This document shows positions 45,003-64,000 of a stretch of DNA of 64,000 bases, one piece after another. Position 1 is the stretch's first letter, and each line of letters opens with the position of its first letter. Origin of the DNA: an uncultured bacterium (lineage in GTDB: Bacteria; Verrucomicrobiota; Kiritimatiellia; RFP12; UBA1067). The notes beneath the pieces are model-generated. The model did not search any database. It had not been told where the DNA came from and saw only the letters and a program-made list of their open reading frames with translations. The DNA lies in the NCBI GenBank assembly GCA_902802945.1, contig CADCOC010000016.1:10269-74268 (forward strand), given 5' to 3'. Made by a program: the position numbers and the translations under genes.

Positions 45003-45050
45003 AAGCCTACCTTCTCGTTGAAGACGGAAGATATCATATCATATTTATGA

Positions 45051-48200: not shown

Positions 48201-49579
48201 GACTCGCCCTTGAATTCGCCGGTAATCACGTCCCTGAAACCGGCCGCGCCAGTTGCGTTCGTCGTCGGCGCGAAGAAATGGACGGGCGTTCCGCTTTCCT
48301 GGATGTCGATCGAGTAAATCAGCGCCTTTGACCATCTCTGCGTAACCGTTGCGGTATAATCCGCGAAAAGCGGCAGGGTGATGCTCGTTTCCGCATCGGC
48401 TGCACAGGTTCCGCCCAGCGTCTCGCCGATGTTCCTGTTTGGATTGCGCTGCCAGAGGTTGGCCTTGCCGGTCTGCCTGTTGATCCACACATAAGCGCGG
48501 CTGGTGTTCGCGCTGCCAGTGCCTCCGCTCCCGAACGCCGAGCCGGAATAAGTGGCGCTGTCATTGATGAGGCACGCAAATTCCTTGTAGGTGCCGTTGA
48601 TGTACAGATGGCAGCCCAACGCCCCTTGCTCGCCGAAAATGCGCGCCTGTTCTGCAATCTCCGTGTACTGGAAGTCCGCCGCGATACGCGTGGTGGGCTT
48701 GACGAGATACCCCGTGTCGATGCAGTTCACGCCGTATGCGCGGATGGACGCGCTCGGGCGGAACGTGTCGGCGGGATAGAGCGCGGCGTACGCCTGCGCA
48801 TCTTCCGCCGTGAACGCCGTCTGGTAGAAGCGCATGTCGCGAAACGCAACGTTGAGATCGTTTACAGTACTCACCTCGCCGGACGTGTTCCCGGAGACAG
48901 TGCTGCAGAACTGAATCCCGCCGCCGAAAGCATAGTTAACCGACGTATGGCTCTTCTGGTAAACGCCGTCCACGTAGAAGTCAAATGTCCCGGCATTGCC
49001 AGAGGTCGGCTTCTTGTACACGACGACAACGGTATGGAATCCCTTCGCCACATCGACATTCTGGTCAAGGAGTATCTGCGCCTTGCGACTTGTCGTGCCA
49101 GATGCCCGCTGGTTTTCGTCAACGAGCAGCTTTGTCGTATCTGACGACGCACAAATGGAGATGTTCTTGCGCGAGTTGACGTTTTTCCTGCCGATTGAGA
49201 AGATGACGCCGTTGTTAGTGGTGCCGGGGCGAACGGACATCACAAACGTCCAGTCATTTCCGTTCAAGAAATTGTACAGCGTCAAGGGCCTGGAAGACGA
49301 GTCGCCCGCCGACCATCCAGTACTCATCGGGTGGGCGGCGGAGTTCGCGCCGTCGGGTCCATCAACGGGAAGTTCCGTCATGTCTCCCCTGCTACTGCTG
49401 CCGATCGTCGTATCCGAAAGCGGATCGACCGGCACCACGTCGCTGCCGCAGAACACCCTCTTGCCCGACGAAAAGTCGTAGCGGAAGTTGTAGGCGTCAA
49501 GGTCGGCGGCATGCGACACCGAGGCCGCCGCAGCCGCGCAGATCGCCGCAATCGCAGCGCGAATCATCTTTGCTTTCAT
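45203..49579 (-). CDS. Large exported protein (LamG-like domains, InlB-B-like repeat, passenger strands) ending RGFTVIVK
   Basis: Start at MKAKMIRAAIAA (signal peptide). FDFYVDG, TLTATPASGYMFTGWAG, KTGAGTMRL. Confidence 0.85.
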   Translation of the reverse strand: MKAKMIRAAIAAICAAAAASVSHAADLDAYNFRYDFSSGKRVFCGSDVVPVDPLSDTTIGSSSRGDMTELPVDGPDGANSAAHPMSTGWSAGDSSSRPLTLYNFLNGNDWTFVMSVRPGTTNNGVIFSIGRKNVNSRKNISICASSDTTKLLVDENQRASGTTSRKAQILLDQNVDVAKGFHTVVVVYKKPTSGNAGTFDFYVDGVYQKSHTSVNYAFGGGIQFCSTVSGNTSGEVSTVNDLNVAFRDMRFYQTAFTAEDAQAYAALYPADTFRPSASIRAYGVNCIDTGYLVKPTTRIAADFQYTEIAEQARIFGEQGALGCHLYINGTYKEFACLINDSATYSGSAFGSGGTGSANTSRAYVWINRQTGKANLWQRNPNRNIGETLGGTCAADAETSITLPLFADYTATVTQRWSKALIYSIDIQESGTPVHFFAPTTNATGAAGFRDVITGEFKGESMPSPSTALSYTAGFGSADDYKYESGTLYAKVYAAPDSTAKGSVAVRDGEGVVITPEADGCCWIPYGTNVTLTATPASGYMFTGWAGDTRAITGGSASDAIITISLDRVAQLRANFVRSTKPVSAYAQSGTAALIAHLDAIDNVGVGMHQAAAPTWIDLMGNLTLTKTGAAGFIDDAWKTDGSSYFQTSSTAAKDALASKAFTLELVISNPGNQVKDSYEYWTFFGEDSSHRQLVVDLRQKNSSNPLVQGVQYRESGWNSRSQFGTSAITKWNKRQYIAVVCDSTGATTYCNATNQIHKTGGGSVNPTQTNIWIGADYAGNNKLYDKSEICAVRMTSRVLTADERLRNWYVDSQRFNLSESPDGYRFADGAVEVRVTKGISGFEFSTDGGTTWTDEEVWVPINVALTLTGRYVADPTVTVPFVGLPDGASVSGNSVTFTPSRPCDISTGVPTLDLSGSAVWGAASWLIGETSIAAPTNGSAVVNLTDGDATLTLDEDVALDNLRIIGSGVLTIVRGAHAYRVESIETASGVKHLVSISNGKIIYEYTSTGFLIKELHMTPAPGETLVLSNEALNFAANAKIFPGVGGELGGRSVIANAFTTAGALEILGVTNVTPLAAEDMSKLTFAATGTQTFPALSGKGVEVTFDANAFGEPTDGAAAPTATVKANGAITMTDSAFVVRGDEAHPIVYDVAVKYALPKVIDFWGNATLTFSGAGTYNDGMTKGTDTITMHPGTTATSAKAYPYHYASGEVVLDGATLTHSEGSTYIYYLTLSNAASASVTGGAFQFGFTASDPVLKVSGTGASTFNGYFTVLGTNKSTGVNNVTIDVEDTVAGEGVDFVMAGNISSDGSYKSSSFIKTGAGTMRLDGIATLNQPIQVREGTLLLNRAEGSMAAANQISLQGGTLALAAGTSNEVASVTLTASSAMTFGDGASFTCANLTIPEGSTLYLTGDLQHPGLRVTTALPRVTLRRIRFNGARATQDADGYICIGRGFTVIVK

Positions 49580-49627
49580 ACTTTTTGCCTTTCTTTCCGT
49601 TGTTGAAGATTGGTTATGTGCAATTAT

Positions 49628-49786
49628 ACGCGGCGTCGTTTCCGATGCCGTTCCATGCCTCCACAATGGCGTCATTTGCGATTTGCCGTTCAAAGCCGCT
49701 GGTCTTCCCATGGAAGTTTGGCGATATGTTAGCACATCCTTCCGTAGTTCGTCAATCCCCCGACGGCGTTTTTGCGGGTGGCAAGG
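49628..49786 (-). repeat. 159-bp promoter-plus-leader element, copy 2
   Basis: TTGACG-N18-TAACAT with a TG extension, then a conserved ~95-nt leader before the gene at 49579. Confidence 0.9.
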
Positions 49787-49792
49787 CCATCT

Positions 49793-49913
49793 CGGCGGCG
49801 GAATGGTGGGGCGATCCGTCCTCGGCGATCCGCCCGCCCCACGGGCATCTTGCCCGTTATCGGGGTGGCGGGCGTCTCGCCCGCAACTGGGACAACGGGC
49901 ATCTTGCCCGTTG
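49793..49913. repeat. Cluster of REP-like palindromes
   Basis: GGTGGGGCGATCCGTCCTCGGCGATCCGCCC, ACGGGCATCTTGCCCGT twice, GCGGGCGTCTCGCCCGC. Relatives lie at 45158-45200 and 54370-54410. Confidence 0.8.
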
Positions 49914-49996
49914 CCAAAACAGTCTTTGCTTTAGATTTCGCTTTTGTCCGTGTTTTTGTCCGTGTAGAACGTGTAGAACGTGTTGTTGCGCGCGGG

Positions 49997-52960
49997 CTAC
50001 TTGACGATTATCATGAGGCCTGAGCGTCTGACGATGTAGCCGCTTCCGCCTTCGTCGAGCTTCGCCTTGTACCCGCCTGCTCCGAACGTGAACGCCGGCT
50101 CGCCCGTCATCTCGCCTTCCACTGCGACGACCGCCTTGCGCGACGCGCTCGCCGCCGCAGGGTCGGCGACATGGACGGGAAGCCCCGCAAGGTCCTTGTC
50201 CCCCGCGAACGTCACGGACGACGCGCCGTTCAGCGTCACGCCCGCCGAAAGCGTCACCGCGCCGAGCGTGATGTCGCTTCCGTCTGCAATCGCAAGCACG
50301 GTCGAGACCGTTCCGTTCGTAATCGTGCCCTCGCCCGACACCGTGCCGAGGCTTCTCGTTGCACCGCCCAGGCTCACCGTAGCGCCATCCGCGATCGACA
50401 CGGCCACGCCGTCCGTCGCAAGGATCGTCGTGCCCGCCTGCGCGTCGAGCGCGAGCGTCCCCGTGTGCGTGCCGCCGAGCGTCCAGTCGCCATGCCCCGC
50501 CTTGCGCACGACCACGTCGCCGTCGAGCGTTCCCGTGAACGCCTGCACCGATTCGTTCGTGAGCGTAACCGTGCCGGAGAATGCGAGCGTTCCCTCGCCC
50601 GCGAGACGGCAGAGGACGGGTGCCGCCCCGTCCGCGAGCGTCAGCGTCGCATTCGTCGCCACAACCACGTCCGCGCCAGCCTTCAGCGCATCGGCGCGTG
50701 AGAGCGTGAGCGCTCCGCCGCCCGCGACGACGTTGGAGAGGTTCGGGCTTGCGCCATCGAGCGTGAACGAACCGAGGTCGTACTTCGCGAGAGTATCGGC
50801 GGTCCACGCGCTCTTGAACGCGCAGGACTGCGCCTCCACGAATCCTGCCGCGACGCCCTTCCCGTCGTTCTCCGCGCCGACGGTCAGCGCGCCGTTCGCG
50901 ACGATGCCGCCCACCGTCAGATCCTGCGACGGTAGCGCCGTGCTTGTCGCGGCCGTGAAGAGCGCCGTGTTGCCAGCGCCGTTCGCCGCGTCCCAGAGCG
51001 TCCCTTCGCGCGGTTCGCCCGCGAGGTCGTTCCAGTTCGTCGCGTCCTCGCCCCATGCGCCGCTTGCTCCGCCCGCCCACACGTTGTGCGCGGAATCCGC
51101 CACGGCCCCAAGGTCACGCACCTGCATACCGTTCAGCTGGACGGAACGCTTGGTGATATTGCTGTAATGCCCAGACAACATGGATATCGTCTGCGTCGTC
51201 GCGGTTGCCGTGAAAAGTCCAGTCGCGAAGTCGCCGCGCGCGGGGCTGAACAAGTCCTCGTTTTGGAACTCGACCCTCGCCACGCCGTCAAGCGTCATGT
51301 AGCGGTCACCATAAGTTGCACCGCTACGTCCTTCATGCACCCAGATCTGCACAAGGTAGCGGTGTCCGGGCGTCAGTCGCTTCAGCGTCAACGTCGATGG
51401 CGTGGCGTCGGAGGTGCCGCCGCCGGGATAGGTTGCGGATTGGATCATCAGCTTATAGCCAGCGGACATGTCGCCGTCCGTAATTCCAAACGCACTCCCG
51501 TTTGAGTTTCCGCCAGAAGGGAACGCGATGTCGAAATCATCGGTTGACGCACTTGCGGACGGACGCTTCCATCCCTTGAACGTCACGCCGTTGACCTCCG
51601 CATCCGTCGTGTCTGACGTGAAGTTGTACGCGTAGAGCAGTTCGCCGTCGAGGCGCACATCGTCGTCGCGCTTCGTGATGGGGCTGACTCTCCAGTGCGT
51701 CGCCGCGCCGGAATCGAGGCGGCGCAATTGGATGGCGTTTATCTGCGGATTGCCTTTGGTCACCTTGGACGTCGGCGTGTAGAGCGAGGTGATTTTCAGC
51801 GATTTCGACAGGCCTTCCGCCGTGAACACGCCTGTGATATGCTGACCGTACGTGCCGCTTGCGACGGCGAAGGCCATGCGCTTACACCCGTCGATCTCCT
51901 GCCAGCGGTACGGTCCGATATTCGTCCGCGTGTCGTTGACCCACAGCTGCACGAGATAGCGTCCGCCCGGCGCAAGACCTTCCAGCGTCACGGTCGCGGT
52001 GCCATTTGCGGACGGATACGTCGCGCCGCCCATGAGGCGGTGGTAGTCGTCTGAAAGCGTCTGCGCGATGTCCTTGTTGAACTCGTTGACATTGCGATAC
52101 GTCATGAATTCCGTGGTCATGCGCACGTCGCGGTAGATCGTCGTGCTGCTCGTGGGCGCAAGCGGCACAAACACGACGTTGTTCACGATGGCGGTTGCCG
52201 CCGTCCAGCCCGCCGCGAACACGCACTCGCCGTCGAGGCGCACGTCGTCGTCGTCCGTGATGTTCTTCACGTCCTCCCACGCGATCAGCCCCGGCGTGAC
52301 GTCGCGCAGCTGGAGGGAGGCGAACTGTGAAACGCCCGACGCGTTGCTGGTATCGATGCATCCGACGATGGTGAAGCTCTGCGAGTCTCCAGTTGCGGTG
52401 AACGCGCCCGTGATATGCTGGCCGAATCCGTTGGACGTGCGAAGCCGGAGAACCTCCGTGCCATCGACCTTGATGTAGCGGACGTTGCCGGGATTGGCAC
52501 GGCTGTCGTTCGTCCACAGCTGGACGATGTAGGCGTGCCCCTGAATCAGGTTCTTCAGCGTGACCGTGTTTGTAACGGTCCCTCCGGTGGCGGAGGTGGA
52601 GTACACTCCCGCCCTTATCAACTGGAGATATCCCTCGCTCGCGCCTGCCGGTACGGTCGTCGCGAAGTTGTTGCTGTCGATGTACTGCGATGCGACATTA
52701 AGACCGACGTCGGCCATCGTCGCAACGCCGTCGGGAAAACCATTCCTGTTGACGCCGGCGGCGAACGAAACACCGTTCACGATGGCGGCCTTGTTCGCGT
52801 ATGCGTAGCGCAGCACGCCGTCGGTGCGCACGTCCGCGTCGCCGACGATGTTCTTCGCGTGTTCCCAACGGATGCCGTCGGCATTCGCAACAAACGGAAG
52901 AATTGCACCTGCCGCGATTGCCGCCGCCGAGACGACTGCTTTCCATGTTTGGTTTTTCAT
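49997..52960 (-). CDS. Exported protein with three tandem ~190-aa domains plus passenger strands, ending SGLMIIVK
   Basis: Three copies of DDVRLDG...VNGV.F...L..L..G..Y.VQ.W..D.R...TG.FTA...QLR. KAGHGDWTLGG. Confidence 0.88.
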   Translation of the reverse strand: MKNQTWKAVVSAAAIAAGAILPFVANADGIRWEHAKNIVGDADVRTDGVLRYAYANKAAIVNGVSFAAGVNRNGFPDGVATMADVGLNVASQYIDSNNFATTVPAGASEGYLQLIRAGVYSTSATGGTVTNTVTLKNLIQGHAYIVQLWTNDSRANPGNVRYIKVDGTEVLRLRTSNGFGQHITGAFTATGDSQSFTIVGCIDTSNASGVSQFASLQLRDVTPGLIAWEDVKNITDDDDVRLDGECVFAAGWTAATAIVNNVVFVPLAPTSSTTIYRDVRMTTEFMTYRNVNEFNKDIAQTLSDDYHRLMGGATYPSANGTATVTLEGLAPGGRYLVQLWVNDTRTNIGPYRWQEIDGCKRMAFAVASGTYGQHITGVFTAEGLSKSLKITSLYTPTSKVTKGNPQINAIQLRRLDSGAATHWRVSPITKRDDDVRLDGELLYAYNFTSDTTDAEVNGVTFKGWKRPSASASTDDFDIAFPSGGNSNGSAFGITDGDMSAGYKLMIQSATYPGGGTSDATPSTLTLKRLTPGHRYLVQIWVHEGRSGATYGDRYMTLDGVARVEFQNEDLFSPARGDFATGLFTATATTQTISMLSGHYSNITKRSVQLNGMQVRDLGAVADSAHNVWAGGASGAWGEDATNWNDLAGEPREGTLWDAANGAGNTALFTAATSTALPSQDLTVGGIVANGALTVGAENDGKGVAAGFVEAQSCAFKSAWTADTLAKYDLGSFTLDGASPNLSNVVAGGGALTLSRADALKAGADVVVATNATLTLADGAAPVLCRLAGEGTLAFSGTVTLTNESVQAFTGTLDGDVVVRKAGHGDWTLGGTHTGTLALDAQAGTTILATDGVAVSIADGATVSLGGATRSLGTVSGEGTITNGTVSTVLAIADGSDITLGAVTLSAGVTLNGASSVTFAGDKDLAGLPVHVADPAAASASRKAVVAVEGEMTGEPAFTFGAGGYKAKLDEGGSGYIVRRSGLMIIVK

Positions 52961-53066
52961 GTTGTTGTTTTTCTTTCGGTTAGTGGATGATTGGTTTCTC
53001 GCCTTTGCTTTGGCCGTTGCTTTTGTCCGTGTAGAACATGTAGAACGTGTAGTTGCGCGCGGGCTA
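52961..53066 (-). repeat. Conserved array junction unit (also at 49920-49999, 54491-54555, 57682-57791, 60096-60147)
   Basis: Core ATCGTCAA(G/A)-TAG-C(C/T)CGCGC occurs at five junctions. CACGTTCTACAYGTTCTACACGGACAAAA occurs at three, and GCAAAGGCGA at three. Confidence 0.88.
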
Positions 53067-53170
53067 CTTGACGATGAGCATGAAACCCTTGGTCGTGCGC
53101 TTGATCGTCACGCCGGGAACGGTCTTCACGTAAACGTTTGAATAACGGACGATTTGCGAAGGCCGATGTC
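53064..53170 (-). pseudogene. Orphan C-terminus of a lost array member
   Basis: Reads ...YSNVYVKTVPGVTIKRTTKGFMLIVK-stop with an in-frame stop upstream. The last 9 codons are identical in DNA to the end of the 54553 gene. Confidence 0.8.
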
Positions 53171-53288
53171 AGAAGTCTGAAGTCCTTCCAACGCGCCCAC
53201 ACGCGGCGTTTTAGCGCGGTTCCGTGCGGTTCCGTGGAGGGTGGCGGTCATGGTGTGGTTTATGCCGTTGTCTTTCTCACTTTACACT

Positions 53289-53546
53289 CTACATCGACGC
53301 CTTTAGTTGCGTGACCTGCGCAAGCGAAAGGCCAGTGTATCTTGCGACGTCCTTCAAAGCGAGAATGCCGTCCTTCAGCATCCGCTTCGCCGTCGCAAGC
53401 ATATTCTCGCGCTTGCCCTCGCGCTTACCCTCGGCAATGCCCTCGCGCTTGCCCTCGGCAATGCCCTCGCGCTTACCCTCGGCAATGCCCTCGGCCTTGC
53501 TCTCGGCCGCACGGCGTTCCGCGAATTCCTCAACTGCTTTGCACAT
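53289..53546 (-). CDS. Putative internally initiated RpnS antitoxin (85 aa)
   Basis: In-frame ATG (MCKAVEEF) preceded by AGGGAGG at 6-nt spacing. Confidence 0.65.
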   Translation of the reverse strand: MCKAVEEFAERRAAESKAEGIAEGKREGIAEGKREGIAEGKREGKRENMLATAKRMLKDGILALKDVARYTGLSLAQVTQLKASM

Positions 53547-54233
53547 GATGCGCCTCCCTTCTTCTGAATTTTTAAACTGACTAACTCTCTTCTTGAGAAT
53601 CTCGAAATACATCTCAGCCGCGTCGCGGCATCTCATATCATGCATCAATTTTCCGATGTCCGTCGTGCTTTGCGCCGCGCCGTTCACGTAGATTATGTGA
53701 GTTCCGTCACGAAGCCTATCTCCGTTCGTCTCTTCAATCCGCAGATACGAGTACACGTCCTGTCCTCGCCCCATCACATCGTTCTCGGTGATGAAGATGA
53801 CGTAGGCATCGCGCAGTTTGTCAAAGTCCTCGCCTGACTTGAGCGCGTTCGCGTCCAACAGCGCGGAGTTGTACCTCGCGCGCTTCGGCTCCGCGCCCTT
53901 GTCGGCTCGCTGGATCTCTATGTCGTACTCCTTGCCCTCGGAATCTCTTGCGAACACGTCGAAGCGAACACCGCGCCCCTGAAGGCTCTTTATCGGGTAC
54001 TCGGTCTGCGACTTGACAACCTTCAAATCCTTCTTGCCGAGGATGATCTGCAAAATCAGCTCGATGCACTCCGGCGCGTTCTCAAGGCATTTTGACATGA
54101 AGGTGTCGTCCATGAGCCGGAAGTTCTCGATCAGCGCAAGACACTCAGGATTCATGACGTGCGCAGAGCGCCCCGCCCTCGTCTTGCCGGGGGCGGACAC
54201 TTTCCGTCTGCCGTTATGCTTTGCCTTCGTCAT
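53289..54233 (-). CDS. Rpn/YhgA-like PD-(D/E)xK nuclease (PDDEXK_2 family)
   Basis: LMDDTFM, RFDVFA.D..GK.YDIEIQ, KRARYN, YVIFITEND, EGKREGIA repeats, YTGLS tail. Confidence 0.9.
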   Translation of the reverse strand: MTKAKHNGRRKVSAPGKTRAGRSAHVMNPECLALIENFRLMDDTFMSKCLENAPECIELILQIILGKKDLKVVKSQTEYPIKSLQGRGVRFDVFARDSEGKEYDIEIQRADKGAEPKRARYNSALLDANALKSGEDFDKLRDAYVIFITENDVMGRGQDVYSYLRIEETNGDRLRDGTHIIYVNGAAQSTTDIGKLMHDMRCRDAAEMYFEILKKRVSQFKNSEEGRRIMCKAVEEFAERRAAESKAEGIAEGKREGIAEGKREGIAEGKREGKRENMLATAKRMLKDGILALKDVARYTGLSLAQVTQLKASM

Positions 54234-54282
54234 GTTTTTCTCGTTTTTCCGCCTGAGGGCACATCGCCCCCAAGCACCGCAT

Positions 54283-54312
54283 ATTTTACACTATCTCCTT
54301 TTTTGGTGTCAA
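54283..54312 (-). promoter_or_regulatory. Sigma70 promoter of the Rpn gene
   Basis: TTGACA-N18-TAAAAT. Confidence 0.7.
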
Positions 54313-54369
54313 GGGACGGGCGGACAAAAAAACTTTCCGTGGCCTGCCGCCTTTGTTTTTGGGTTAGTC

Positions 54370-54484
54370 GGCGGAATGGTGGGGCGAGCCGTCCTCGGCG
54401 AGCCGCCCGCCATTACCAACGGTAGGGGCCGACCACCGGGCGGCCCGGAGATGTGGCAAAACAGGTCAGACCGGTTTTGCCACA
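54370..54484. repeat. Cluster of REP-like palindromes
   Basis: GGTGGGGCGAGCCGTCCTCGGCGAGCCGCCC, GGTAGGGGCCGACCACCGGGCGGCCC, TGTGGCAAAACAGGTCAGACCGGTTTTGCCACA. Confidence 0.8.
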
Positions 54485-54552
54485 ACTCATGCTGTTGGTC
54501 CTTTTGATGTGTGGTTTTGGTTTGACAGGATTTCGCCTTTGCTTTGCGCGGG

Positions 54553-57500
54553 CTACTTGACGATGAGCATGAAACCCTTGGTGCGTTCAAGCCGTAAACC
54601 TTCGGCCCTGGGACGTAACTTGAACCCAAGCATGGCTGTTTCTGCGTCAAGCTTAAACGCCACGTCGGACGGTGCGGAGTTCCATGTGACGATATACGGC
54701 TCGTTCGACTTCGCGAGCGCCATCAAATCCGACCGCCCGGCAAGGTTCACGTTCACCGTCGAGTGCGCGACGAACTGGACGTTCGTCGCACCCGTCTTGA
54801 AACCCGATGTCATCGGCCAACCCGCGCTTTCGGGCCACGCGCGCAGATCCATCGTCGAACCGTCCTGCATGGTCGGTCCGTAGAAATTCGTCGAAACCGG
54901 CTTGAACGTGCGATAGACGTTCAAGGCGCCGGTTCCGGCGTTGCTTGTTCCCGTATAGAGCGCTTCGTAGTCACCGACATCGAGCGCCCTGGTCGTTTCG
55001 ATGTTCAACGCACACGACACCTCAAGGTTCACGGTCTTTGCGTCTATCGCGATGTTCTTGAACGTGTCCGTGTGGAGCGTTCCACCGGAAACGCGGATGG
55101 TTCCATTCGTGATGGTCGTTCCAACAGCCCCCGAGCCGCCAAGTTCGAACGTTACGCCGGATGCCATCGTCACGTCAAGGACATGCCCGCCGAGATCAAC
55201 GGTATGCGTACTCCACAAATGCGGATGCGAACCGGATTGAGCAACGAAATACGAGTCGGCAAGAAGGCGTGTCGCCCCGAAAATACATCCGTAGTATCCG
55301 TCGGAAGTTTTTTTGTCATAATCGAAAACGACCGTGCCACCGTGCAGGACGAGTCTGTAAATGGTGTACCAGCTGTTGGCAAGCTCGAAATTCGCCCCGG
55401 ACATGATGTCAATATCCTTGAGGTTCGAAACCGTACCGTGCCCGAACGGCTCATAGTCGGAAGCTTTGGTAGTGGACCTCAACGTGCCGGCGCGGATCTC
55501 CGTCATGCCGGTGTACGTCTGCTTGGCAGTCGTAGATACCGTAAGTTTCCCAGCGCCCGTCTTCACGAACTTCAAGTTGCCGCCGAGCCGGACATTGGAG
55601 TTCTCGCTCGTGGCGTTCGCCGCCACGTCCACGCAGAATTCCGAAAGAGTTGTCGTGTTGCCGTTTGTCACCGTGGTGGCCGAAGAAGCGTCAAGGCCCG
55701 CGACCACAAGCGCGTGTCCGTTCAGGTCGATTTTGCTTCCTGCGGCAGAGGACATCACGCCCGTTCCCAAACCCCGCCAGTCGCAATTCTCCGACAACGT
55801 GCAGTCGCCTATTGTGAGCGAATAGCACGTAAGAACCTGTCCTGTGGGAACATTGAACGTCGTTGCGCCGGAAACGGAAACGTACGTGTTCTCCCCGGGA
55901 ATCGTGCCAGCGAGCAAAGTCCCTTCATAGTTTCGGCACTGCCAGTTTTGCGGGTCGGACACATTGTTTCTGTCTCCGCCGCCTATCCATTCAGCGTAAA
56001 TCGGCACGTCGGCGGCGAATGTAATCACAAGCGTCTTGCCGTCCGCGCCGAGGACTACGCTGCCGCGTGACGCGGAAACGAAGTCCGCAACGCTCTTCCC
56101 CGCAGGGACGCTAAATCCCTCCGCAGCCGTGAATACCGTCACGCCAGGCACGATGTCGGCACTTCCCATGTCGATGACGAGAGACGAACTCTCGGCAAAA
56201 GCGACCGCGCCCGTGATGGAAACATCGGGGGGAATGGTGAGCGTCACGCCCTCGCCGATGTTCAGCGAGCCAAATGAATCCATCGTCTTGAGCGCGTCGG
56301 TCGAGTATGTAAACGCGGCGTTCACATATCCTTCTCCGCGACCGCAGTCAAGCGTGAGCGAACGCGCCTTCGGCTGGGCGTCGAACGTCAGCGTAAGGTC
56401 GTCGGCCACAAACGAGATTATCGGATCCCCGAATATGCCAGAACCCATGAAATGCCCCCATTCCATGTTTTCCTTCAAGGGGGTGAACGGGAGGGCGTAG
56501 AGGTTGTAGGCGGAGTATGTGCCGCTTGCATCGGCGGTGGTGCCTGGCACGAAAACGTTCCTCTCCGACGAGAAACCGCCGTTCTCGGTGAAGTAACGAT
56601 ACGCGAACCCCAATGAATATTGCGCACGAAGCGCATAGCCATGGACGTCCGTGCCGTCGTCCGTAAAGTCGGCGAGTATGTGATGGTCGTAACCCCATGG
56701 GCGGAAGTCCACCTTCAGGTCCGTGACGGTGCCGTTCCCGTCCGATGTCACGATTCGCTGCAGACCCTGTGCCGGACGCCCAGACACCCCCGCGCCGCCA
56801 TTGCGACGGATTGAAAGATACATGTCGCGGATGTCGTCGAGCGAACATCCGCCGAACGCCTTTGCGCTGGATGTCTGGAGGTAGCCGGTGCAATGGTAGA
56901 GCGGCATGTCGTCCCACACTTCCACGGACGAGATGTACAGTACGCCGTCATTCACTTTGTCGCCGCAGAGAATGAATCCGTCGCCTGTGAAACTTGAACG
57001 CAGGTCCGTCTCCGACTCAAGCGACACGGATCGGACACCGTCGAGCGTGGACGCCGAACCCGCGGCGCCGAAATGCGCCGTGAACGAATGCCAGGCGAGG
57101 GTCGTGACCGTGCGCGAGAGAAGCGCGCCGTCTTTGTTCTTGTCCGCGCCGCTGCTTGCGTAGTTGTTCTTGTTCTCGAACTGCGACGTGCCGAACTCGG
57201 CCTCCCTTGCGCGTATGAGATTGTATCCGTTCACAAAGTACAGCTTATCGGCGGCATTGCCGTAGTCGGGCTGGATAAGGCTGCGCTGATGCCCAGCCCC
57301 CGCTGGCACGTAGAAGCGGATGCGCACCATCCATTCCTTGTCGCGCACGATTCCCGCCGGCAGAGGCATCTTCAAATGCGAACCCGATGGGATGTTGAGC
57401 GCGTAGTCGCCGTCTGCGAGACCTGGCGCCTGATCCGCGCCCACAACGGTAATTGAGTTGCCGAGCGTACCGTCGGTGATCGCCGTTGAAGTTCCTTTGC

Positions 57501-57681
57501 CGCTGCATGGAATCGCCGCAAGGTTTCCAACGGTCGGCGCGAGAATCGCCGCGCTCCTGGGGTTTTCGGGGTCGTAGTTGTTGAAGTCCCATCTAGCGAC
57601 AAGACCCGCCCACGACGGAGCCATCGCGGTTGCCGCGATTGCCGCCGCCGAGACGGCGGCTTTCCAGGTTTGGTTTCTCAT
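54553..57681 (-). CDS. Large exported passenger-like protein ending KGFMLIVK
   Basis: Signal MRNQTWKAAVSAAAIAA, LVARWDFN, KTGAGKLTV...TYTG.TEI.AGTL autotransporter-associated strand. Confidence 0.88.
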   Translation of the reverse strand: MRNQTWKAAVSAAAIAATAMAPSWAGLVARWDFNNYDPENPRSAAILAPTVGNLAAIPCSGKGTSTAITDGTLGNSITVVGADQAPGLADGDYALNIPSGSHLKMPLPAGIVRDKEWMVRIRFYVPAGAGHQRSLIQPDYGNAADKLYFVNGYNLIRAREAEFGTSQFENKNNYASSGADKNKDGALLSRTVTTLAWHSFTAHFGAAGSASTLDGVRSVSLESETDLRSSFTGDGFILCGDKVNDGVLYISSVEVWDDMPLYHCTGYLQTSSAKAFGGCSLDDIRDMYLSIRRNGGAGVSGRPAQGLQRIVTSDGNGTVTDLKVDFRPWGYDHHILADFTDDGTDVHGYALRAQYSLGFAYRYFTENGGFSSERNVFVPGTTADASGTYSAYNLYALPFTPLKENMEWGHFMGSGIFGDPIISFVADDLTLTFDAQPKARSLTLDCGRGEGYVNAAFTYSTDALKTMDSFGSLNIGEGVTLTIPPDVSITGAVAFAESSSLVIDMGSADIVPGVTVFTAAEGFSVPAGKSVADFVSASRGSVVLGADGKTLVITFAADVPIYAEWIGGGDRNNVSDPQNWQCRNYEGTLLAGTIPGENTYVSVSGATTFNVPTGQVLTCYSLTIGDCTLSENCDWRGLGTGVMSSAAGSKIDLNGHALVVAGLDASSATTVTNGNTTTLSEFCVDVAANATSENSNVRLGGNLKFVKTGAGKLTVSTTAKQTYTGMTEIRAGTLRSTTKASDYEPFGHGTVSNLKDIDIMSGANFELANSWYTIYRLVLHGGTVVFDYDKKTSDGYYGCIFGATRLLADSYFVAQSGSHPHLWSTHTVDLGGHVLDVTMASGVTFELGGSGAVGTTITNGTIRVSGGTLHTDTFKNIAIDAKTVNLEVSCALNIETTRALDVGDYEALYTGTSNAGTGALNVYRTFKPVSTNFYGPTMQDGSTMDLRAWPESAGWPMTSGFKTGATNVQFVAHSTVNVNLAGRSDLMALAKSNEPYIVTWNSAPSDVAFKLDAETAMLGFKLRPRAEGLRLERTKGFMLIVK

Positions 57682-57788
57682 GCAGTTGGTCCTTTTGATG
57701 TGTGGTTTTGGTTTGACAGGATTTCGCCTTTGCTTTGGCCGTTGCTTTTGTCCGTGTAGAACATGTAGAACGTGTAGTTGTGCGCGAG

Positions 57789-60095
57789 CTATTTGACGAT
57801 AATCATGAGTCCGCCGCGACGGCGCAGATAGCCGCTGGAATCGAGCGACACGCGCTCGCCGTTATAGGTAACCTGGCGCAATTGCGCGGCAGTTAGGCCG
57901 TTCTCCGACGAGCCGAAACGCAGGGAGCGCGTAGGCAGCTTGTCGTCGCCGGTGATCGCCAGTGTTGCCCCCGGCGTCCACGACACACCGCTGGAATCGG
58001 CAAAAGCAAGCGAGCCTCCTTCAAGGTTGATCGCCGCGTCGCCGGAGAGCGTCAGTACGCCCGTCGTGTTCGTCGTTGAGCCGCACGTCACCGTTCCGCC
58101 GGCAAGCGTCAGAGGCGCGGACGACGGAAGCGATGTATTACTCCCAAGAGCGACAGTCCCATCCTCTATGGTGAAGCGGCCTGCAAACGTGTTATTGCCC
58201 GAAAGCGTCAAGGTTGCCGCGCCGCGCTTGACGATTCGTGCACCTTGGTTTGCTTCGTTTGTACTGTCGTATATTCGACCAGTGATTGCGAGATCCGACA
58301 ACGTTGTGATATACAGGACGTTCGTCTTGCTCCCAGTCGCGTTGTGGCGCAGGAGGTCGATTCCCGTGTCGATCAGATTGGCGGCGGAACCGGCGCTCAC
58401 GTAGTGCGTCTCGTTCGTGACGTTGGGATATCCGCAGCGCAACGCATTTCCTATGACGCTCGCACCGTTCGTCAGCACCAGTTCATTGATGTAGTTGTTG
58501 CCGTCGAGGCTTGAGCTGTGGTACTGGTGGTTGTAGAGCGTGGAAGCGTCAAGAACATATTTGCCCTGCGACTTCGTCACCAGTCCCTGCTGCACAAGCA
58601 ACGTGCAGCCAGGCTCAAGCCATTGCGTCGTGCCCGCACCGAGAGGCGACGCACCGCCGTCGGCATACGTGAACTGAGGGCCATAGTTCACCTGTGAGCC
58701 GTTGCGGGCGACGACAAACGTCGGCATCGCGTTCTTCGTGGTGAACACGATCTGCGCGTTGTCCACTACCGCGTCCTGACATGCGTTCGCCACGCTCAAC
58801 GTAAGCGAAGGAGTCTCCACGCTGTTAAATGTGAGGGACTTAATGCCATAGCTACCGTTGTTGTTCTCTATGACAGACGTACCAAGCTCCGCCTGCTTCG
58901 CAACAAGGTCGCATCCAAGCATATCCGTAGTTCCTCCATTGCCCGTTGGCCACCACCAGCCCCTAACTCTTCGCGCGGTGACGTTTGCACCCACCTGCTT
59001 CAACTCGACTAACGCACCCTTGATGCCGCCGGAGTGGAACTGAAGCTGGAAAGACATCGTCTCGCCATCGAACTTGTAGTGGTAAATGGATGGGTTTGCG
59101 TTGAAACCAATCGCAGAGCCGCGCATAACCGCACTTGCGGGCGTTGAGCGCAAGAGGACAAGATTCGTCAACACCGTCGCTCCCGCCGTGCTGGACATCC
59201 ACTGCGCCGCCGCCTTCTCGACATTTGGATCGGTTATGCCGAATGTCCGTTGTACCGTCGCATCGGAAAGCCCGCGCACGTCGAGCCGCCCATTGGGACA
59301 CTCAACTGCGTTCGTCCACGTATGTGCAAACGGAGCCGTCACCTCCACTCTCATATTGGAGAACTTGAACTTGCCGCCGAAGTCCGTCTCGCCAACGACC
59401 CCCAGCTTAGCCGTGTACGCAGCAAGGTTACATACGCCATATCCGCTCGTAGTGCGCGACGTCGCCACATTGTTGCCCCTCACCTTCGCGTTGTTGACAT
59501 CCATTCCCTTCCAAAAGTTACCATCTTGAACATAGCACGCGGAAGCTGATCTGGCATGGATGCCGTCACTCTCCTCGGTTAGCTCGACGTTCACGCATTT
59601 AACAATACCCTGAAGTATCTGGAACTGGACGCTTCCTGTTGTGCCGTTATACGTGTAGCGATAACCATCTGCCGGGAAAATGCTGCTGCCGCCCGTGATG
59701 GCGCTGCCGCCCATCACCGCCGTGAGGGCAGTGATTTCAGAAAGCCTCAATCCGGGGAACACAAGCACGGAACTGTTCTTGGGCAGAAACACCTCATCAT
59801 CGTTACTCGATGCGGCGATTCCCGTAAGCGTCAGCGTACCCGACGTCGTGAGGTTCGAGACCGTCACCGCGCCGTCGAGCGTGACCGTCGCCGCGCTTGG
59901 GAACACGGCGCTCGCGCCGTCAACCCATGCGGACGGCGTTTCGCCGTCTAACCAGTTCTCGCCCGTGGTCCACGACGCGCCATCTGCGCCGTTCCAGGTT
60001 AGCGTCTTGCCGTCGGCATCCGCCCACGACGGCAACGCCGCCGCTACGCAGATTGCCGCCGCTGAGATGGCGGCTTTCCCAGTTAGTTTCCTCAT
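57789..60095 (-). CDS. Exported passenger-like protein ending GGLMIIVK
   Basis: Signal peptide, TWNG...NW, KRGAATLTLSGNNTFAG..TI.DGT. Confidence 0.88.
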   Translation of the reverse strand: MRKLTGKAAISAAAICVAAALPSWADADGKTLTWNGADGASWTTGENWLDGETPSAWVDGASAVFPSAATVTLDGAVTVSNLTTSGTLTLTGIAASSNDDEVFLPKNSSVLVFPGLRLSEITALTAVMGGSAITGGSSIFPADGYRYTYNGTTGSVQFQILQGIVKCVNVELTEESDGIHARSASACYVQDGNFWKGMDVNNAKVRGNNVATSRTTSGYGVCNLAAYTAKLGVVGETDFGGKFKFSNMRVEVTAPFAHTWTNAVECPNGRLDVRGLSDATVQRTFGITDPNVEKAAAQWMSSTAGATVLTNLVLLRSTPASAVMRGSAIGFNANPSIYHYKFDGETMSFQLQFHSGGIKGALVELKQVGANVTARRVRGWWWPTGNGGTTDMLGCDLVAKQAELGTSVIENNNGSYGIKSLTFNSVETPSLTLSVANACQDAVVDNAQIVFTTKNAMPTFVVARNGSQVNYGPQFTYADGGASPLGAGTTQWLEPGCTLLVQQGLVTKSQGKYVLDASTLYNHQYHSSSLDGNNYINELVLTNGASVIGNALRCGYPNVTNETHYVSAGSAANLIDTGIDLLRHNATGSKTNVLYITTLSDLAITGRIYDSTNEANQGARIVKRGAATLTLSGNNTFAGRFTIEDGTVALGSNTSLPSSAPLTLAGGTVTCGSTTNTTGVLTLSGDAAINLEGGSLAFADSSGVSWTPGATLAITGDDKLPTRSLRFGSSENGLTAAQLRQVTYNGERVSLDSSGYLRRRGGLMIIVK

Positions 60096-60144
60096 GTTTT
60101 TGTTTCCCTTTTTGAGTTAGTTGATGAGTGGTTTTGTGCGCGGG

Positions 60145-62688
60145 CTACTTGACGATTACCATCAAGCCCTTTGGAATGCTGACGTACACCGTCTCGCCCT
60201 TGGCCACGAGCTTCGCGCAATCGCCCCTCGTCACCGTTGACGCATCCAGCGTCAGATTCGGCACGACGGCCGCCGCAGCCTCGGCGGAAGCCAGCGTGAG
60301 AACCGGATACTTGCCGGGCTTGAGCTGGGTCGTGCCGCCGACCACGATCCGCGCACCGGCCGCCGCCGTCGCGCTGTTCGCCGTCACCGGCGCGGTCGCG
60401 TCCGCCGTGAGGTTGCTGACAACGAGCGCCGTATCCGCGCTGAAGGCCAACGTACCGCCGAGCGTGGTTCTGCCCGACGGGACAACAAGCCGCGTGCTGT
60501 CCTGCAACGTCACGTTGCCCCTGCCGGGACGGGCTCCGTTCTTCACCTCGACCGTCGCAGAATCCTTGACGGTCAAGCCTCCGGCAAAGTCGTTGTCGTT
60601 GATGCCCGTGTTTGCAAACACGAACCGTCCGATGCCTTGCACGACGACCAAGACCGTGCTGGCGTAGTCAGCCGACGAGCCTCCGATACCGCTCTCCGCC
60701 GTGATTGTCCGGCCTACTGTGTTGTCGTAGTAGTCAGTCGTGTCGAACGTCACCGTGGTGTTGCCGGAACTGCCGATTTTGCGAATGCCCTTGTTAGTCG
60801 TGCCCATATTGGAATGGTTGTTGAAGTAGATCTGCCAGTCGGCGTAGGAACCGAAATAATGAGAACCTGAGTTGCTGATGCGAACGTAGCCGCTTGCACC
60901 GTGAATGATGCCATTTGATCCGACAATCGTCTTCGTAGGGGTGTACGGCGAAACGAGAACTGCAGTCGTGCGAAGTTTTGGTGTAATGAAAACACCGCCG
61001 CCAGTTGTATTCTCCAAATATCCGCCGCCGCCCCCGTTATTAAGTTCTGTATTGGAATAGATTTCGTTTGTGGCCTTGAACACGCCGTAGTTCCTGTTGA
61101 CAAGATGCTTGCTTCCGCTTCCATTTGTCTTTGTGTTCTTGACCGTCACCGTAGCGCCGCTCTCAATCGTAAGCCTGTTGTTATGATCGTAATACGTTCC
61201 ATCCAGCAGATTGAGTTCCGATCCCGTCTTCAATGTTGAGCCATTTGGCGGGGACCAATCTCCGGTCGTCGTTATGTTGTATCTGCCGTAGAAAGTCGTG
61301 TGGTTGGATATGTTCACCCCCGTCGCGCCGCCCGCGAAGTTGACGTGTCCGCTTGTCGCCGTCACGTTTATCTTGTCGCTAAACGCAACTGCGTTCTGCA
61401 GCTCGTTCGCCTGTCCGTTCCGGCAGACGACACTGATGACTCGCGCCATCGCCGTACCCGTCACAGTCACCTTCCCCGCGCCGGACTCGAATGTCAAGGT
61501 CTGGATCCGGAAGGATGCGTCAGACGGATTGTAGTTGACGGTTACGTCGCCGCTCTGCGGAAACACGAAATGGCTGTAGCCGTCTATCTGCACGGGAACG
61601 TTGCCGTCGTCGTCGATCCAGTTCGCGAGAGTGAACCACTGCGGCTCTGACTCATTTGCATTGCCAGTCCATGTGTACACCGTCTTGCCCTTGAACGTCG
61701 CCAGGAGCTGCACGGCCGTGTCGCTCGTCACCGTGATGGTCTGGCTTTCCATGTCGCCGGAGGTGATCGCCCATGTGTCGCCGGACCAGGACACGAAATC
61801 GCAGTCAGTGGCAGGCGTCGCCTTGAGCGTCACGTTCGAGCCGCGAGCGACCCATGCCTCCGCCGTGCCGGACGCCTCCGCGCTCCCAAACGCCACAGAG
61901 CCCTTCTCCGTGTCGGAGGCGTAGGCGTGGAACTTCGCGGAGAACACACCGTCCACGTACTTGTAGTCATCCGCGCTTCCAATACCATCGGAAAAGGTGA
62001 GATCGGAGGATGGGCTTGACTCCGCCTCGCCGTGGAACGCGTTGCCGATCACGTCGTAGAACCCAGCCGCGCCGAGCTCGTTCGTCGCCGGCGCAAGGAA
62101 TACAGCCGGCGTCGTCGCCGTGCTGCTGTCCGCCGCCTCGAAGCTGTAGATGTTCTTTGTTCCGGCCACGTAGTTACCCGCCCTCAAGGCGAAGAGACTC
62201 AACGACGTCGTGGCCGTACTGTTATGCGTATATGTTTGCGTCTTTGTCTGAGCACCCGTTCGATCGTAAAGGCTCAGAACCGCCGTCTCTTCAGTTTTGG
62301 AAGAGTGCGTGACTGTCATGATCCTGCGTTGCGCATCAATCGCGCTAAACGTGGAAGCGGAACTGCCGGAATCTCGATAATACCATTTGTAATTCCGCCT
62401 GCCGCTGCCACTGGTCGTGTAGAACGCGCAGTTTGGGTTCTCGGCCGTATTTCCGAATATGCCCTGGTTGTCGAGGCTCGCCTGGGTCAGCTGAAAATCG
62501 ATGAAGTAGCGCGAGAGCGCCTTTGCGCAATACCCCGTATCAACCCTGTTCACGCCATGCGACTGCACGTATGCGTATGGCTGGAGCGTATGCGTTTCCG
62601 CCCACGACGGCAACGCCGCCGCTACGCAGATTGCCGCCGCAAGCGCGGCGAGTTTGCCGCACATTGATTTGATGATTGTTGAGTGCAT
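60145..62688 (-). CDS. Exported passenger-like protein ending KGLMVIVK
   Basis: Signal ...AAAICVAAALPSWA, shared with the neighbouring gene. N-terminal module shared with the 45203 gene. Confidence 0.88.
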   Translation of the reverse strand: MHSTIIKSMCGKLAALAAAICVAAALPSWAETHTLQPYAYVQSHGVNRVDTGYCAKALSRYFIDFQLTQASLDNQGIFGNTAENPNCAFYTTSGSGRRNYKWYYRDSGSSASTFSAIDAQRRIMTVTHSSKTEETAVLSLYDRTGAQTKTQTYTHNSTATTSLSLFALRAGNYVAGTKNIYSFEAADSSTATTPAVFLAPATNELGAAGFYDVIGNAFHGEAESSPSSDLTFSDGIGSADDYKYVDGVFSAKFHAYASDTEKGSVAFGSAEASGTAEAWVARGSNVTLKATPATDCDFVSWSGDTWAITSGDMESQTITVTSDTAVQLLATFKGKTVYTWTGNANESEPQWFTLANWIDDDGNVPVQIDGYSHFVFPQSGDVTVNYNPSDASFRIQTLTFESGAGKVTVTGTAMARVISVVCRNGQANELQNAVAFSDKINVTATSGHVNFAGGATGVNISNHTTFYGRYNITTTGDWSPPNGSTLKTGSELNLLDGTYYDHNNRLTIESGATVTVKNTKTNGSGSKHLVNRNYGVFKATNEIYSNTELNNGGGGGYLENTTGGGVFITPKLRTTAVLVSPYTPTKTIVGSNGIIHGASGYVRISNSGSHYFGSYADWQIYFNNHSNMGTTNKGIRKIGSSGNTTVTFDTTDYYDNTVGRTITAESGIGGSSADYASTVLVVVQGIGRFVFANTGINDNDFAGGLTVKDSATVEVKNGARPGRGNVTLQDSTRLVVPSGRTTLGGTLAFSADTALVVSNLTADATAPVTANSATAAAGARIVVGGTTQLKPGKYPVLTLASAEAAAAVVPNLTLDASTVTRGDCAKLVAKGETVYVSIPKGLMVIVK

Positions 62689-62724
62689 GATTGTTTTCCT
62701 TTTTGATTTGCTTGTTGTTTGTCA

Positions 62725-62795
62725 AAGGGACTTAAGGGACGGGAAGGGACACAAGGGATAGTTGCTTTCGTCTTCTTGCGTCCCTTTTGTCGCTT
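62725..62795. repeat. Periodic AAGGGAC repeats with inverted degenerate copies
   Basis: Four AAGGGA(C/T) copies at 9-10 bp spacing, then GTCTTCTT, GTCCCTT, GTCGCTT. Confidence 0.75.
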
Positions 62796-62808
62796 CACGC
62801 CTCCCGTT

Positions 62809-63082
62809 TTACGCCTCGGGCGCGGGCTCCGGGTCTTCCTTCTTGTGCTTCGCGGGCTGGGCGGCAATGCGCTTGTACTGCTCGACCACGCCGACCGCCG
62901 CCTTGATCGCCTTCGCCGCCTCTTCCCGCCGCGTCGACGGCGCGCATGATCCGCACCGAGTCGCCAGTCTCGCCTGCGAGCCGCGGAAAATCCGCAACAG
63001 ACACGTCCGCCACGCTCATCACGCCACCAAAGGCACACGTCCACGGAACCACTATGACTACGATCAGTTTCCTCATGCTCAT
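62809..63082 (-). pseudogene. Deletion chimera of the N-terminus of a pectate-lyase-like gene and the C-terminus of another gene
   Basis: AGGAGG RBS, signal-like start, VSVADFPRLAGETGDSVRIMRAVDAAG, then out of frame EEAAKAIKAAVGVVEQYKRIAAQPAKHKKEDPEPAPEA-stop. Confidence 0.6.
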
Positions 63083-63086
63083 CCTC

Positions 63087-64000
63087 CTACCGCACGAGGA
63101 TCATGATGCCGCGTGTGATGTACAGGCCGTCGTCCTTCTTTTGCAAGCCGAAGTGCTCGCCTTCGGCGCTCGTGAACCTCAGAGTGGCGAGGTTCGCCGG
63201 CGTATTGCCCGTCCAGTCAACGATCTTGTCGCCGGTCTTGACCTTTCTCTCGCCCAGCTTGATCTTGACCGTCGCGTTGTCGGCAAAGGAGACGGTCTTG
63301 CGCGCCGTCTGCTGTTCCGTCGTAAGGCCATAAGTGCTGGCCCCGTTCGCGATCGAAGACTGTATCGACCAGGCCCCGGTCTTCCCCGACAGGTCGATCG
63401 TCGAGCCGTTCATCATCGTACAGCCGTAGAACGTCGTGCTGATCGGCGTGAACGTTCCGTACACGTTCAGTCCATACGCCGTACCCGTTCCCCACTGGTT
63501 CTGCGAGCCCGCAATCTTGTAGTCATGCACCGACGCGGGGTCAAACATGTGTGCCCGGACGTTGATCTCGACATCCACGCCGTTGCCGTCAGCGGGCAGC
63601 TTGCCGACGTATTCCACGGAGGAATCAAACACGAACCGGCCCGTCTCGCCTTCCAGCGACGCATCAATGTAGTAGTACTGCGATCCGGTCCCGCCCGAGA
63701 ATGTCAGCGTGTGCCCGTCAAGATCCAAGTGACTGCCCGCCGCCCCGATATGCAAATTGACGTCTCCACCGTTCAACAGCATGATCTGCGAGTCGGCCGT
63801 GACCGCCGTGAGCATCGCGACATCTCCGCTGAGGTTGCCGTACAGCAGTCCGCCAGCGAGGACGATGTCGTTTGTGAACGTGTGCGAACTCTGCACCATG
63901 AACGTCGCATTGCTCTCAACGGTTACCGCGCCCGTGCCGTACACGGTGAAATCGCCCTCTCCGCTGTAGGTCACCGAGTTGGCGGGCTCCTGGGCCGTGC
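63087..64000 (-). CDS. C-terminal part of another array protein ending RGIMILVR (5' end off window)
   Basis: Frame is open to the window edge. LNVYGTFTP...FYG.TM..GST.DL block shared with the 54553 gene. Confidence 0.85.
   Translation of the reverse strand, partial: TAQEPANSVTYSGEGDFTVYGTGAVTVESNATFMVQSSHTFTNDIVLAGGLLYGNLSGDVAMLTAVTADSQIMLLNGGDVNLHIGAAGSHLDLDGHTLTFSGGTGSQYYYIDASLEGETGRFVFDSSVEYVGKLPADGNGVDVEINVRAHMFDPASVHDYKIAGSQNQWGTGTAYGLNVYGTFTPISTTFYGCTMMNGSTIDLSGKTGAWSIQSSIANGASTYGLTTEQQTARKTVSFADNATVKIKLGERKVKTGDKIVDWTGNTPANLATLRFTSAEGEHFGLQKKDDGLYITRGIMILVR

Follow-up and report, generated by a model that had tools for sequence, protein, structure and literature searches.

Several multigene families for surface or outer-membrane proteins, such as the bab/Hop paralogues of Helicobacter pylori, pilE/pilS of Neisseria and vls of Borrelia, are reshuffled via their conserved 5′ and 3′ ends. 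Integron arrays (IntI, attI/attC) consist of single genes in one orientation with a recurring unit just past each stop, and their typical cassettes differ from genes of 768–1458 aa that have their own ribosome-binding site (RBS). Short repeats resembling repetitive extragenic palindromic (REP) sequences and miniature inverted-repeat transposable elements (MITE), the Rickettsia palindromic elements, were reportedly described by Ogata et al. in 2000 as inserting in frame into genes. Here we describe a tandem array of genes for large secreted proteins, joined by a recurring junction unit, which shares features with each of these systems. The array lies in a stretch of 64,000 nt (the window) of contig CADCOC010000016.1 (GCA_902802945.1), and the contig runs 877 nt past the window. 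The genome containing it (G000 in Table 1) is a metagenome-assembled genome (MAG) of 5.8 Mb in 300 contigs, with 92.9% completeness and 3.7% contamination. It belongs to an uncultured bacterium of the Planctomycetes–Verrucomicrobia–Chlamydiae (PVC) group from the bovine gut, Lentisphaerae/Kiritimatiellota-like; portions of the stretch were found in 20 public runs from eight studies, whose habitat labels, where given, are bovine gut or bovine metagenome.

Paralogous but modular genes stand in tandem in this region, and their products are large, Sec-exported and all-beta (PATR, LamG and InlB-B-repeat domains). These products are probably surface or adhesin-like proteins, and we infer a surface location for them. 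We consider it probable that the array represents a modular family of secreted beta-proteins whose ends are kept alike by function, which is reshuffled and truncated by ordinary recombination, and at whose 3′ ends a selfish repeat has settled. With the bab/Hop, pilE/pilS and vls families it shares conserved ends and divergent middles, mosaic orthologues and short identical tracts like those of gene conversion, and no dedicated integrase is needed. It differs from them in that every copy has its own RBS, start and signal peptide, so that silent cassettes do not feed one common expression site, in that the bodies are largely non-homologous and not allelic variants, and in having the selfish repeat at the 3′ ends. 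An earlier note on this DNA had likened it to an integron-style cassette array. The single genes, the common orientation and the unit recurring just past each stop agree with that likeness, whereas the locus has no IntI and no hairpin-forming attC, its junction is composite and variable, and its genes are very large and have their own translation signals.

Every large open reading frame (ORF) of the array region lies on the minus strand; the genes g847, g768, g1042, g987 and g1510 and the junctions J0 to J5 are listed in Table 1. The earlier note had placed five gene junctions with one shared motif between 49920 and 60147. This motif, ATCGTCAA(G/A)TAGC(C/T)CGCGC, was found in five copies, on the minus strand only (49990, 53057, 54546, 57782 and 60138; 0 expected from 100 shuffles). 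On minus-strand genes it is therefore a gene end (I-V-K-stop) followed by CCCGCGC. The copy at 53057 follows a 21-codon remnant and no gene, and the array has to be extended on both sides, where a sixth (g1510) and a seventh family gene (from 63087 onward) flank the five motifs without CCCGCGC. The three doubled 9-mer blocks stand in J2, J4 and J5; they had been written as TGTAGAACR, the reverse complement of the unit, which should be given as the minus-strand YGTTCTACA since the genes read on that strand. Repeat finding recovered the near-identical pair 54487-54545 and 57678-57736 as 54486-54546 and 57677-57737, with 98% identity over 61 nt (60/61). The paired signal peptides were also present, MKNQTWKAVVSAAAIAA and MRNQTWKAAVSAAAIAA, together with ...AAAICVAAALPSWA, which occurs twice. 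All family proteins of the region have signal peptides of Sec type, of few types; the segments coding for those of g768 and g847 are identical at 44/44 nt (60019-60062 and 62597-62640), and the ends of g1042 and of the remnant at 37/37 nt (54546-54582 and 53057-53093).

The junction unit consists of four unrelated layers stacked upon each other and is no single element. The first consists of the final codons of a C-terminal module common to the family, ...DGLY-x3-4-G-[FL]-[MV]-[IL]-I-V-[KR]-COOH, and the second of the stop, CCCGCGC and, at three junctions, the core of a selfish dispersed repeat specific to the lineage. The third is a common 5′ leader with a Shine-Dalgarno-like AAAGGA, and the fourth is one of the few Sec signal-peptide types. 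The leader (…AAAGCAAAGGCGAAATCCTGTCAAACC…AAAAGGA…ATG) was found at J2, at J3 and on two further contigs, C89 and C204, both of which also carry the J3 composite of leader, start cut after ATGAG and repeats. Past J3 the cut gene start is followed by hairpin/REP-like repeats, an Rpn gene, a flank module and the 21-codon tail of a family gene. Five copies of this leader-plus-tail remnant, from three genomes, are truncated at the same point, and the full-length gene stands at two other loci. The intergenic DNA of the array is a patchwork of several repeat families. For the scanning of sequences this carries a caution, as coding constraint adjoining an unrelated selfish repeat can mimic one striking junction unit. 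Folded as single-stranded DNA, six junction strands gave z values of +0.92 to +1.69, and 166–191 of 200 shuffles folded at least as well, which is not attC-like; the repeats are direct and not inverted, and the junction content varies among J1, J2 and J3, with insertions and deletions of whole repeats. No Rfam family matched within 44000-64000 (E≤0.1). In a promoter and terminator scan the counts did not exceed those of shuffles and the junctions had no terminator; one strong sigma-70-like site was observed upstream of the Rpn gene.

Two side observations concern this intergenic DNA. The remnant forms an ORF with a start codon, [GA]TG-KT(V/F)(P/S)GVTIKRTT(K/N)(G/S)(F/L)MLIVK-stop, which is open in five copies (53064-53129 of the window and loci L009, L015, L027 and L039); it is probably a propagated deletion remnant, and conceivably a small leader peptide instead. 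The GC-rich REP-like repeats (…GGGGCGAGCCGTCCTCGGCGAGCC…) lie at 49796-49838 and 54369-54411 and the hairpin (GTGGCAAAACCGGTCTGACCTGTTTTGCCAC) at 54412-54485. Each has dozens of copies across the genome and is also present in congeners, and crude ORF calls often cross them, giving false N-terminal extensions such as ...GKPYAGNPHVRFDEG....

A search of the genome for more copies, which the earlier note had suggested, gave 64 tail-bearing ORFs and 37 doubled 9-mers. These 64 ORFs, each 150 aa or longer, end in the tail Φ-Φ-Φ-V-[KR]-stop, and 57 of them show Gly at position −7, frequently after (D)DGLY, in the pattern G-Φ-Φ-Φ-Φ-V-[KR]-stop; the 12 nt ATCGTCAARTAG occur at 22 genome sites. Codons of the tail match genome usage, with the exception of an excess of TAG stops (38/64 versus 23% among long ORFs). 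Only 7/64 tail ORFs have CCCGCGC or CTCGCGC past the stop, and five of these seven are in the window array. Thus, the coding part of the junction is mostly protein constraint, and the 7 nt past the stop are the mark of a subfamily. A hidden Markov model of the tail (54 positions) matched 49 places in the genome, 14 in one congener and one in another; three genomes of other genera gave one weak match each (E 0.002–0.008) and the other 55 sampled from the order gave 0. The tail family is a lineage-specific expansion. What stands out in biological terms is that a single uncultured PVC bacterium of the cattle gut has about 60 genes for large secreted beta-proteins, composed of interchangeable leaders, signal peptides and bodies and a single conserved tail.

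Among Pfam and NCBIfam models none covers the tail, including those for PEP-CTERM, the C-terminal domain of the type IX secretion system and other curated sorting signals. Seven C-terminal pieces of 99 aa gave only chance-level matches to unrelated NCBIfam families at E≤10. Among the literature matches listed, nothing was relevant to such a tail or sorting signal, or to PATR families in Kiritimatiellota/Lentisphaerae. In an AlphaFold2 model of g768 (40 homologues; mean pLDDT, predicted local distance difference test, 84.4), the protein is all-beta, with residues 1–57 and the last five disordered; residues 764–768 have a pLDDT below 50, and in the model the tail resembles a free peptide. The tail may act as a flexible targeting or anchoring peptide; should it be a sorting signal, it would point to an unknown surface-display or secretion route in the group. 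In other species, g768 homologues (P0004-P0062) have the ends GFMLIVR, GLVISVF, GLIISFF and GLIIMVL. The more distant relatives have aromatic or hydrophobic ends (…GLIISFF, …GLVISVF, …GLIIMVL) and not …IV[KR], an alternating hydrophobic pattern that may resemble the C-terminal beta-signal of outer-membrane proteins.

The dispersed repeat of the second layer has a distribution of its own. The 37 copies of the doubled unit (YGTTYTACA)x2 are spread over both strands, and only seven stand directly after tail and stop; in six of these the preceding ORF belongs to the tail family (150 aa or longer), and in the seventh it is the 21-codon remnant. The genome contains the exact 18-mer 28 times (reversed control, 0), 3 of 18 congeners contain it two to three times, and 12 genomes of other genera have 0 copies. 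Its 9-mer core belongs to a dispersed element of ∼120 nt, which occurs in several composite contexts, in some as a two-armed palindrome, and of which a longer version lies in frame inside real genes. A UxaC gene (278 bits in Pfam, split over three stretches) contains two in-frame inserts, and a UxuA gene contains the doubled 9-mer twice and three visible peptide inserts (...NDNCH...ST(R/S)STCSTRL...). In a Ser/Thr kinase gene an antisense insert lies just past the kinase domain (from translation and Pfam), and two neighbouring kinase-like ORFs contain the repeat as judged by position only. At the junctions the repeat adjoins CCCGCGC exactly; it is absent at J1 and J3 and present at the orthologous sites of the rumen MAGs RUG12514 and RUG10619. 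The 26-nt core had 0 matches in viral contigs. The 9-mer block is, from this distribution, a separate lineage-specific selfish dispersed repeat that settled at 3′ ends. Like the Rickettsia palindromic elements, it is short, multi-copy, of high copy number within a limited lineage, sometimes palindromic and found in frame inside enzyme genes; it differs in sequence, in its PVC-group gut host and in being enriched right after the stops of one family (7/37). This in-frame repeat and the uncatalogued C-terminal tail are the most novel by-products of the analysis.

Between these constant ends the bodies diverge, as the earlier note had stated. BLASTP among the seven family proteins of the region (Rpn and ATPase aside) gave a match in only 4/21 pairs, at 26–36% identity and partial; the gene bodies are unrelated, or alike over parts at 25–36% identity. 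Against TIGR02601 (cut-off 19.85), g768 scored 37.7 bits and g1042 29.9 bits, and g768 also scored 35.6 bits against PF12951 (cut-off 27), whereas g987, g847 and g1510 had no PATR match in Pfam or NCBIfam. LamG-like and InlB-B-repeat domains were found in g1510 and InlB-B-repeat in g847. These proteins resemble PATR (autotransporter-associated beta-strand-repeat) proteins in the scores of g768 and g1042 and in the all-beta model of g768, and differ in ending with a short C-terminal tail. No autotransporter-barrel family was among the Pfam and NCBIfam matches of the array proteins, which end in the tail where the classical (type Va) autotransporter has its C-terminal beta-barrel translocator. 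A structural assignment of the g768 family by Foldseek against PDB was discarded, since only weak matches were obtained (best E 7.6e-4, template-modelling score ∼0.1), to GH110 enzymes (beta-helix), autotransporter passengers and tailspikes. Across the alignment of 40 g768 homologues, conservation is lowest in the signal peptide (0.39), and the mature N- and C-terminal parts are conserved above the middle. Three internal tandem repeats of g987 lie near 51642, 52227 and 52815, ∼585 nt (∼195 aa) apart; its Pfam matches, to fn3 and a purple-acid-phosphatase-N-like domain, were weak and below threshold.

We compared the locus with its relatives, using species-level genomes and per-run contigs. A scan for the junction pattern in one genome per species returned 40 loci, 18 of them from RUG10619 and RUG12514 and one from a Lentisphaerae-labelled MAG; these 19/19 carry the tail plus junction. 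As for the other 21, four (L011, L014, L022 and L044) were inspected and had no tail-family context, and 17 were judged by title to be from unrelated taxa. Arrays with the same junctions are present in three separate assemblies. Of the six ends of the orthologous blocks (Table 1), five fall within junction components, namely in tail codons, exactly past CCCGCGC (twice, 60138 and 54546), past the repeat and inside the signal peptide. The neighbours differ: non-family genes follow the g847 orthologue in RUG12514, and a different 675-aa paralogue precedes g987 in RUG10619. The signal peptides change as well. The mature N-terminus of g847, ETH(T/A)LQPYAYVQ, bears three different signal peptides, MHSTIIKSMCGKLAALAAAICVAAALPSWA in this genome, MKKQTWRAAVSAAAIAAGAMMPSPSLA in RUG12514 and MRKLMTLAAVAASAFLPASA in the congener G006, which have only ∼11 nt in common at the switch point. 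Conversely, within the genome the same signal-peptide type stands on bodies without a BLASTP match (1e-5) in 5/6 pairs for type A and 20/36 pairs for type B.

With these varying neighbours and switched signal peptides, the content and order of the array are not stable between related species and the ends have been exchanged. In more distant congeners g768, g847 and g1042 have homologues (41–57%) that stand as single genes, and the 3′ flank read for the g847 homologue of G006 has no CCCGCGC junction. The 20-kb array had no collinear counterpart in 30 species-level relatives, which matched only in the ATPase gene (92%), in one gene at 71% and in dispersed repeats. The mosaic orthologues, with switch points in the conserved ends, offer a concrete testable case of gut bacteria varying their surface repertoire without a dedicated recombinase.

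On the reading that we favour, selection on export and tail signals would keep the coding ends alike, and recombination between short near-identical direct repeats would move leaders and signal peptides onto other bodies and would also add, delete and truncate whole genes. Homologous or microhomology-mediated recombination, gene conversion and unequal crossing-over are the candidate modes, and no dedicated site-specific recombinase would be involved. The proposal of the earlier note that the constant ends let bodies be swapped, gained or lost by recombination is in this respect supported by the turnover, the block ends and the swapped signal peptides. Much of the constancy of the ends is coding constraint, common to about 64 genes.

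Several observations weigh against this interpretation. Block ends at junctions are partly expected anyway, from whole-gene gain or loss and because alignments extend through conserved ends, and one block end (55598) is internal to the body, as is the ∼1-kb indel of the g1042 homologue. Leader-module copies resemble each other about equally between species (91–98%) and within the genome, by which concerted evolution is not clearly shown. The comparisons are between species only, and a metagenome scan with g768 gave two distant relatives (52% and 49%) on short contigs. Finally, among the pieces listed for four public runs, the per-run contigs cover the bodies separately and stop at every junction, and none bridges J1–J5. 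Each joint listed across a junction either reaches less than 31 nt on one of its sides or is a row marked 'goes back', the junction bins reach up to ∼30x the depth of neighbouring body bins in the four runs, and the order g847–g768–g1042 is unconfirmed by independent support.

A stronger version of the same idea appears rather unlikely to us. It takes the two ends as portable recombination handles, the 5′ leader with the signal peptide on one side and the tail, CCCGCGC and the repeat on the other, of an integrase-free cassette system that would build up, exchange and discard unrelated surface-protein bodies in tandem arrays by host recombination, the tail being an undescribed sorting signal. 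Breaks made by the selfish repeat and by the Rpn nuclease of the array might then help. If true, it would lead to strain-specific surface repertoires in the rumen.

That the array order and some mosaics are chimeric short-read joins across repeats of 40–130 nt in a metagenome bin is improbable, even though the unbridged junctions, their excess depth and the fragmented state of the MAG are what such joins would leave. The same junctions recur in the three assemblies, and the order J4–g987–J5 is supported because this block is collinear at 95.4% in RUG10619. The ∼11 nt at the g847 switch point are too short for a k-mer mis-join, and the in-frame insertions of the repeat are flanked on both sides by intact enzyme homology. 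Moreover, the junction units are real even if the order is wrong.

We regard it as quite improbable that the array arose by old tandem duplication only, with one ancestor whose copies diverged in their bodies while purifying selection froze signal peptide, tail and leader, and without recombination between copies. A function of the tail and signal peptide, common to ∼64 genes, is plausible, the tail codons follow genome usage, and the mature termini of the g768 homologues are better conserved than their middle, all as expected from such a history. Against this, most body pairs have no detectable similarity, and the non-coding leader and synonymous sites are identical over 37–61 nt. Orthologous mature proteins bear three unrelated signal peptides and leaders, identical signal-peptide types stand on non-homologous bodies, and the leader-plus-tail remnant has one common truncation point in its five copies.

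Lastly, an integron-like system, in which body plus junction would be a cassette moved site-specifically at the junction by an unseen dedicated recombinase, appears extremely improbable: in its favour are the same-orientation array of single ORFs with a recurring unit, the two orthologous blocks ending exactly past CCCGCGC and the upstream neighbour unseen beyond the contig end, whereas TIGR02249 reached at best 77 bits in the whole genome (cut-off 265) and had no match on the contig of the array, with generic tyrosine recombinases on other contigs, Pfam scans of the window turned up no recombinase domain (22 ORFs of 1-43500 at E≤1e-4 and eight ORFs from 43581 on at E≤0.01), and neither the folding, the direct orientation and the variability of the junctions, nor the 9-mer blocks spread through the genome and inside unrelated genes, nor the large genes with their own RBS agree with such cassettes.

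The only nuclease gene present at the array is the Rpn gene, which scored 82.6 bits against TIGR01784 (cut-off 52.1) and 45.1 bits against PF12784 (cut-off 27.4) and has a PD-(D/E)XK domain and 12-nt (4-aa, dodecamer) repeats in its C-terminal part, as expected for the Rpn family. Rpn (YhgA-like) proteins are described as recombination-promoting nucleases (PMC5350276), and the gene matches the account, in another report (PMC10400941), of defence genes for an RpnL toxin and an intragenic RpnS antitoxin with dodecamer repeats. It resembles the Rpn/RpnL-RpnS genes in score, domain and dodecamer repeats, and its linkage to genes of the array family is weak. About 12–13 Rpn-like loci occur in the genome, many at contig ends. 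Rpn was considered as the recombinase of the array and set aside, as only 2/13 Rpn loci have a family gene 500 nt away or nearer, and several loci are uninformative because they sit at contig ends; a contribution of Rpn to its rearrangement is a lead only.

Table 1. Coordinates of the array, of neighbouring features, of repeat-bearing enzyme genes and of orthologous blocks (window positions unless a contig is named)
Feature	Coordinates	Strand	Description
Family gene, 3′ part	63087..64000, continues past window	-	576 aa on contig; end ...TRGIMILVR-stop; without CCCGCGC junction
Junction J0	62689..63086	-	Unlike other junctions; includes 95-codon ORF 62795-63082
g847	60145..62688	-	Secreted, 847 aa, InlB-B-repeat; tail ...KGLMVIVK-stop
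Junction J1	60096..60144	-	CCCGCGC and short leader; without 9-mer element
g768	57789..60095	-	Secreted PATR beta-strand-repeat protein, 768 aa; tail ...GGLMIIVK-stop
Junction J2	57682..57788	-	CTCGCGC, dispersed-repeat core 57755-57772, then 61-nt leader and RBS (57677-57737 including start codon)
g1042	54553..57681	-	Secreted PATR protein, 1042 aa; tail ...KGFMLIVK-stop
Junction J3	54369..54552	-	CCCGCGC and J2-type leader; start codon cut after ATGAG by hairpin/REP-like dispersed repeats
Rpn-family PD-(D/E)XK nuclease gene	53289..54233	-	RpnL/RpnS type; 12-nt tandem repeats 53390-53507; multi-copy in genome
Dispersed Rpn 3′-flank/leader module	53144-53270	-	Fused to 21-codon family-gene remnant (whole unit 53064..53270)
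Family-gene remnant, 21 codons	53064-53129	-	End ...TKGFMLIVK-stop
Junction J4	52961..53063	-	CCCGCGC, repeat core 53030-53047, leader and RBS
g987	49997..52960	-	Secreted, 987 aa, three internal ~195-aa repeats; tail ...SGLMIIVK-stop
Junction J5	49580..49996	-	CCCGCGC, repeat core 49963-49980, REP-like element 49796-49838, then leader of next gene
g1510	45203..49579	-	~1458 aa from M53; secreted, LamG and InlB-B-repeat; tail ...RGFTVIVK-stop; no CCCGCGC past stop
Tail-family gene	37376-41698	-
TolC-like gene	35892-37292	-
C10 peptidase giants	22267-35871	-
UxaC gene with repeat	G000:C171:1136-2605	-
UxuA gene with repeat	G000:C65:68488-69780	+
Ser/Thr kinase gene with repeat	G000:C149:5334-7781	-
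g987 orthologue, RUG10619	Window block 53087-49930		95.8% aa; 95.4% nt over block
g847 orthologue, RUG12514	Window block 62611-60138		86% aa; 87% over block
g1042 3′ third, RUG10619	Window block 55598-54546		89% nt; ~1-kb internal indel

Elsewhere in the window, three tandem genes code for giant C10 (streptopain-like) peptidase proteins of 1302, 1524 and 1688 aa, which have an Inhibitor_I69 prodomain and CHB_HEX_C/Fn3-associated repeats. They are followed by the gene of a TolC-like outer-membrane factor and then by a tail-family gene of 1440 aa.

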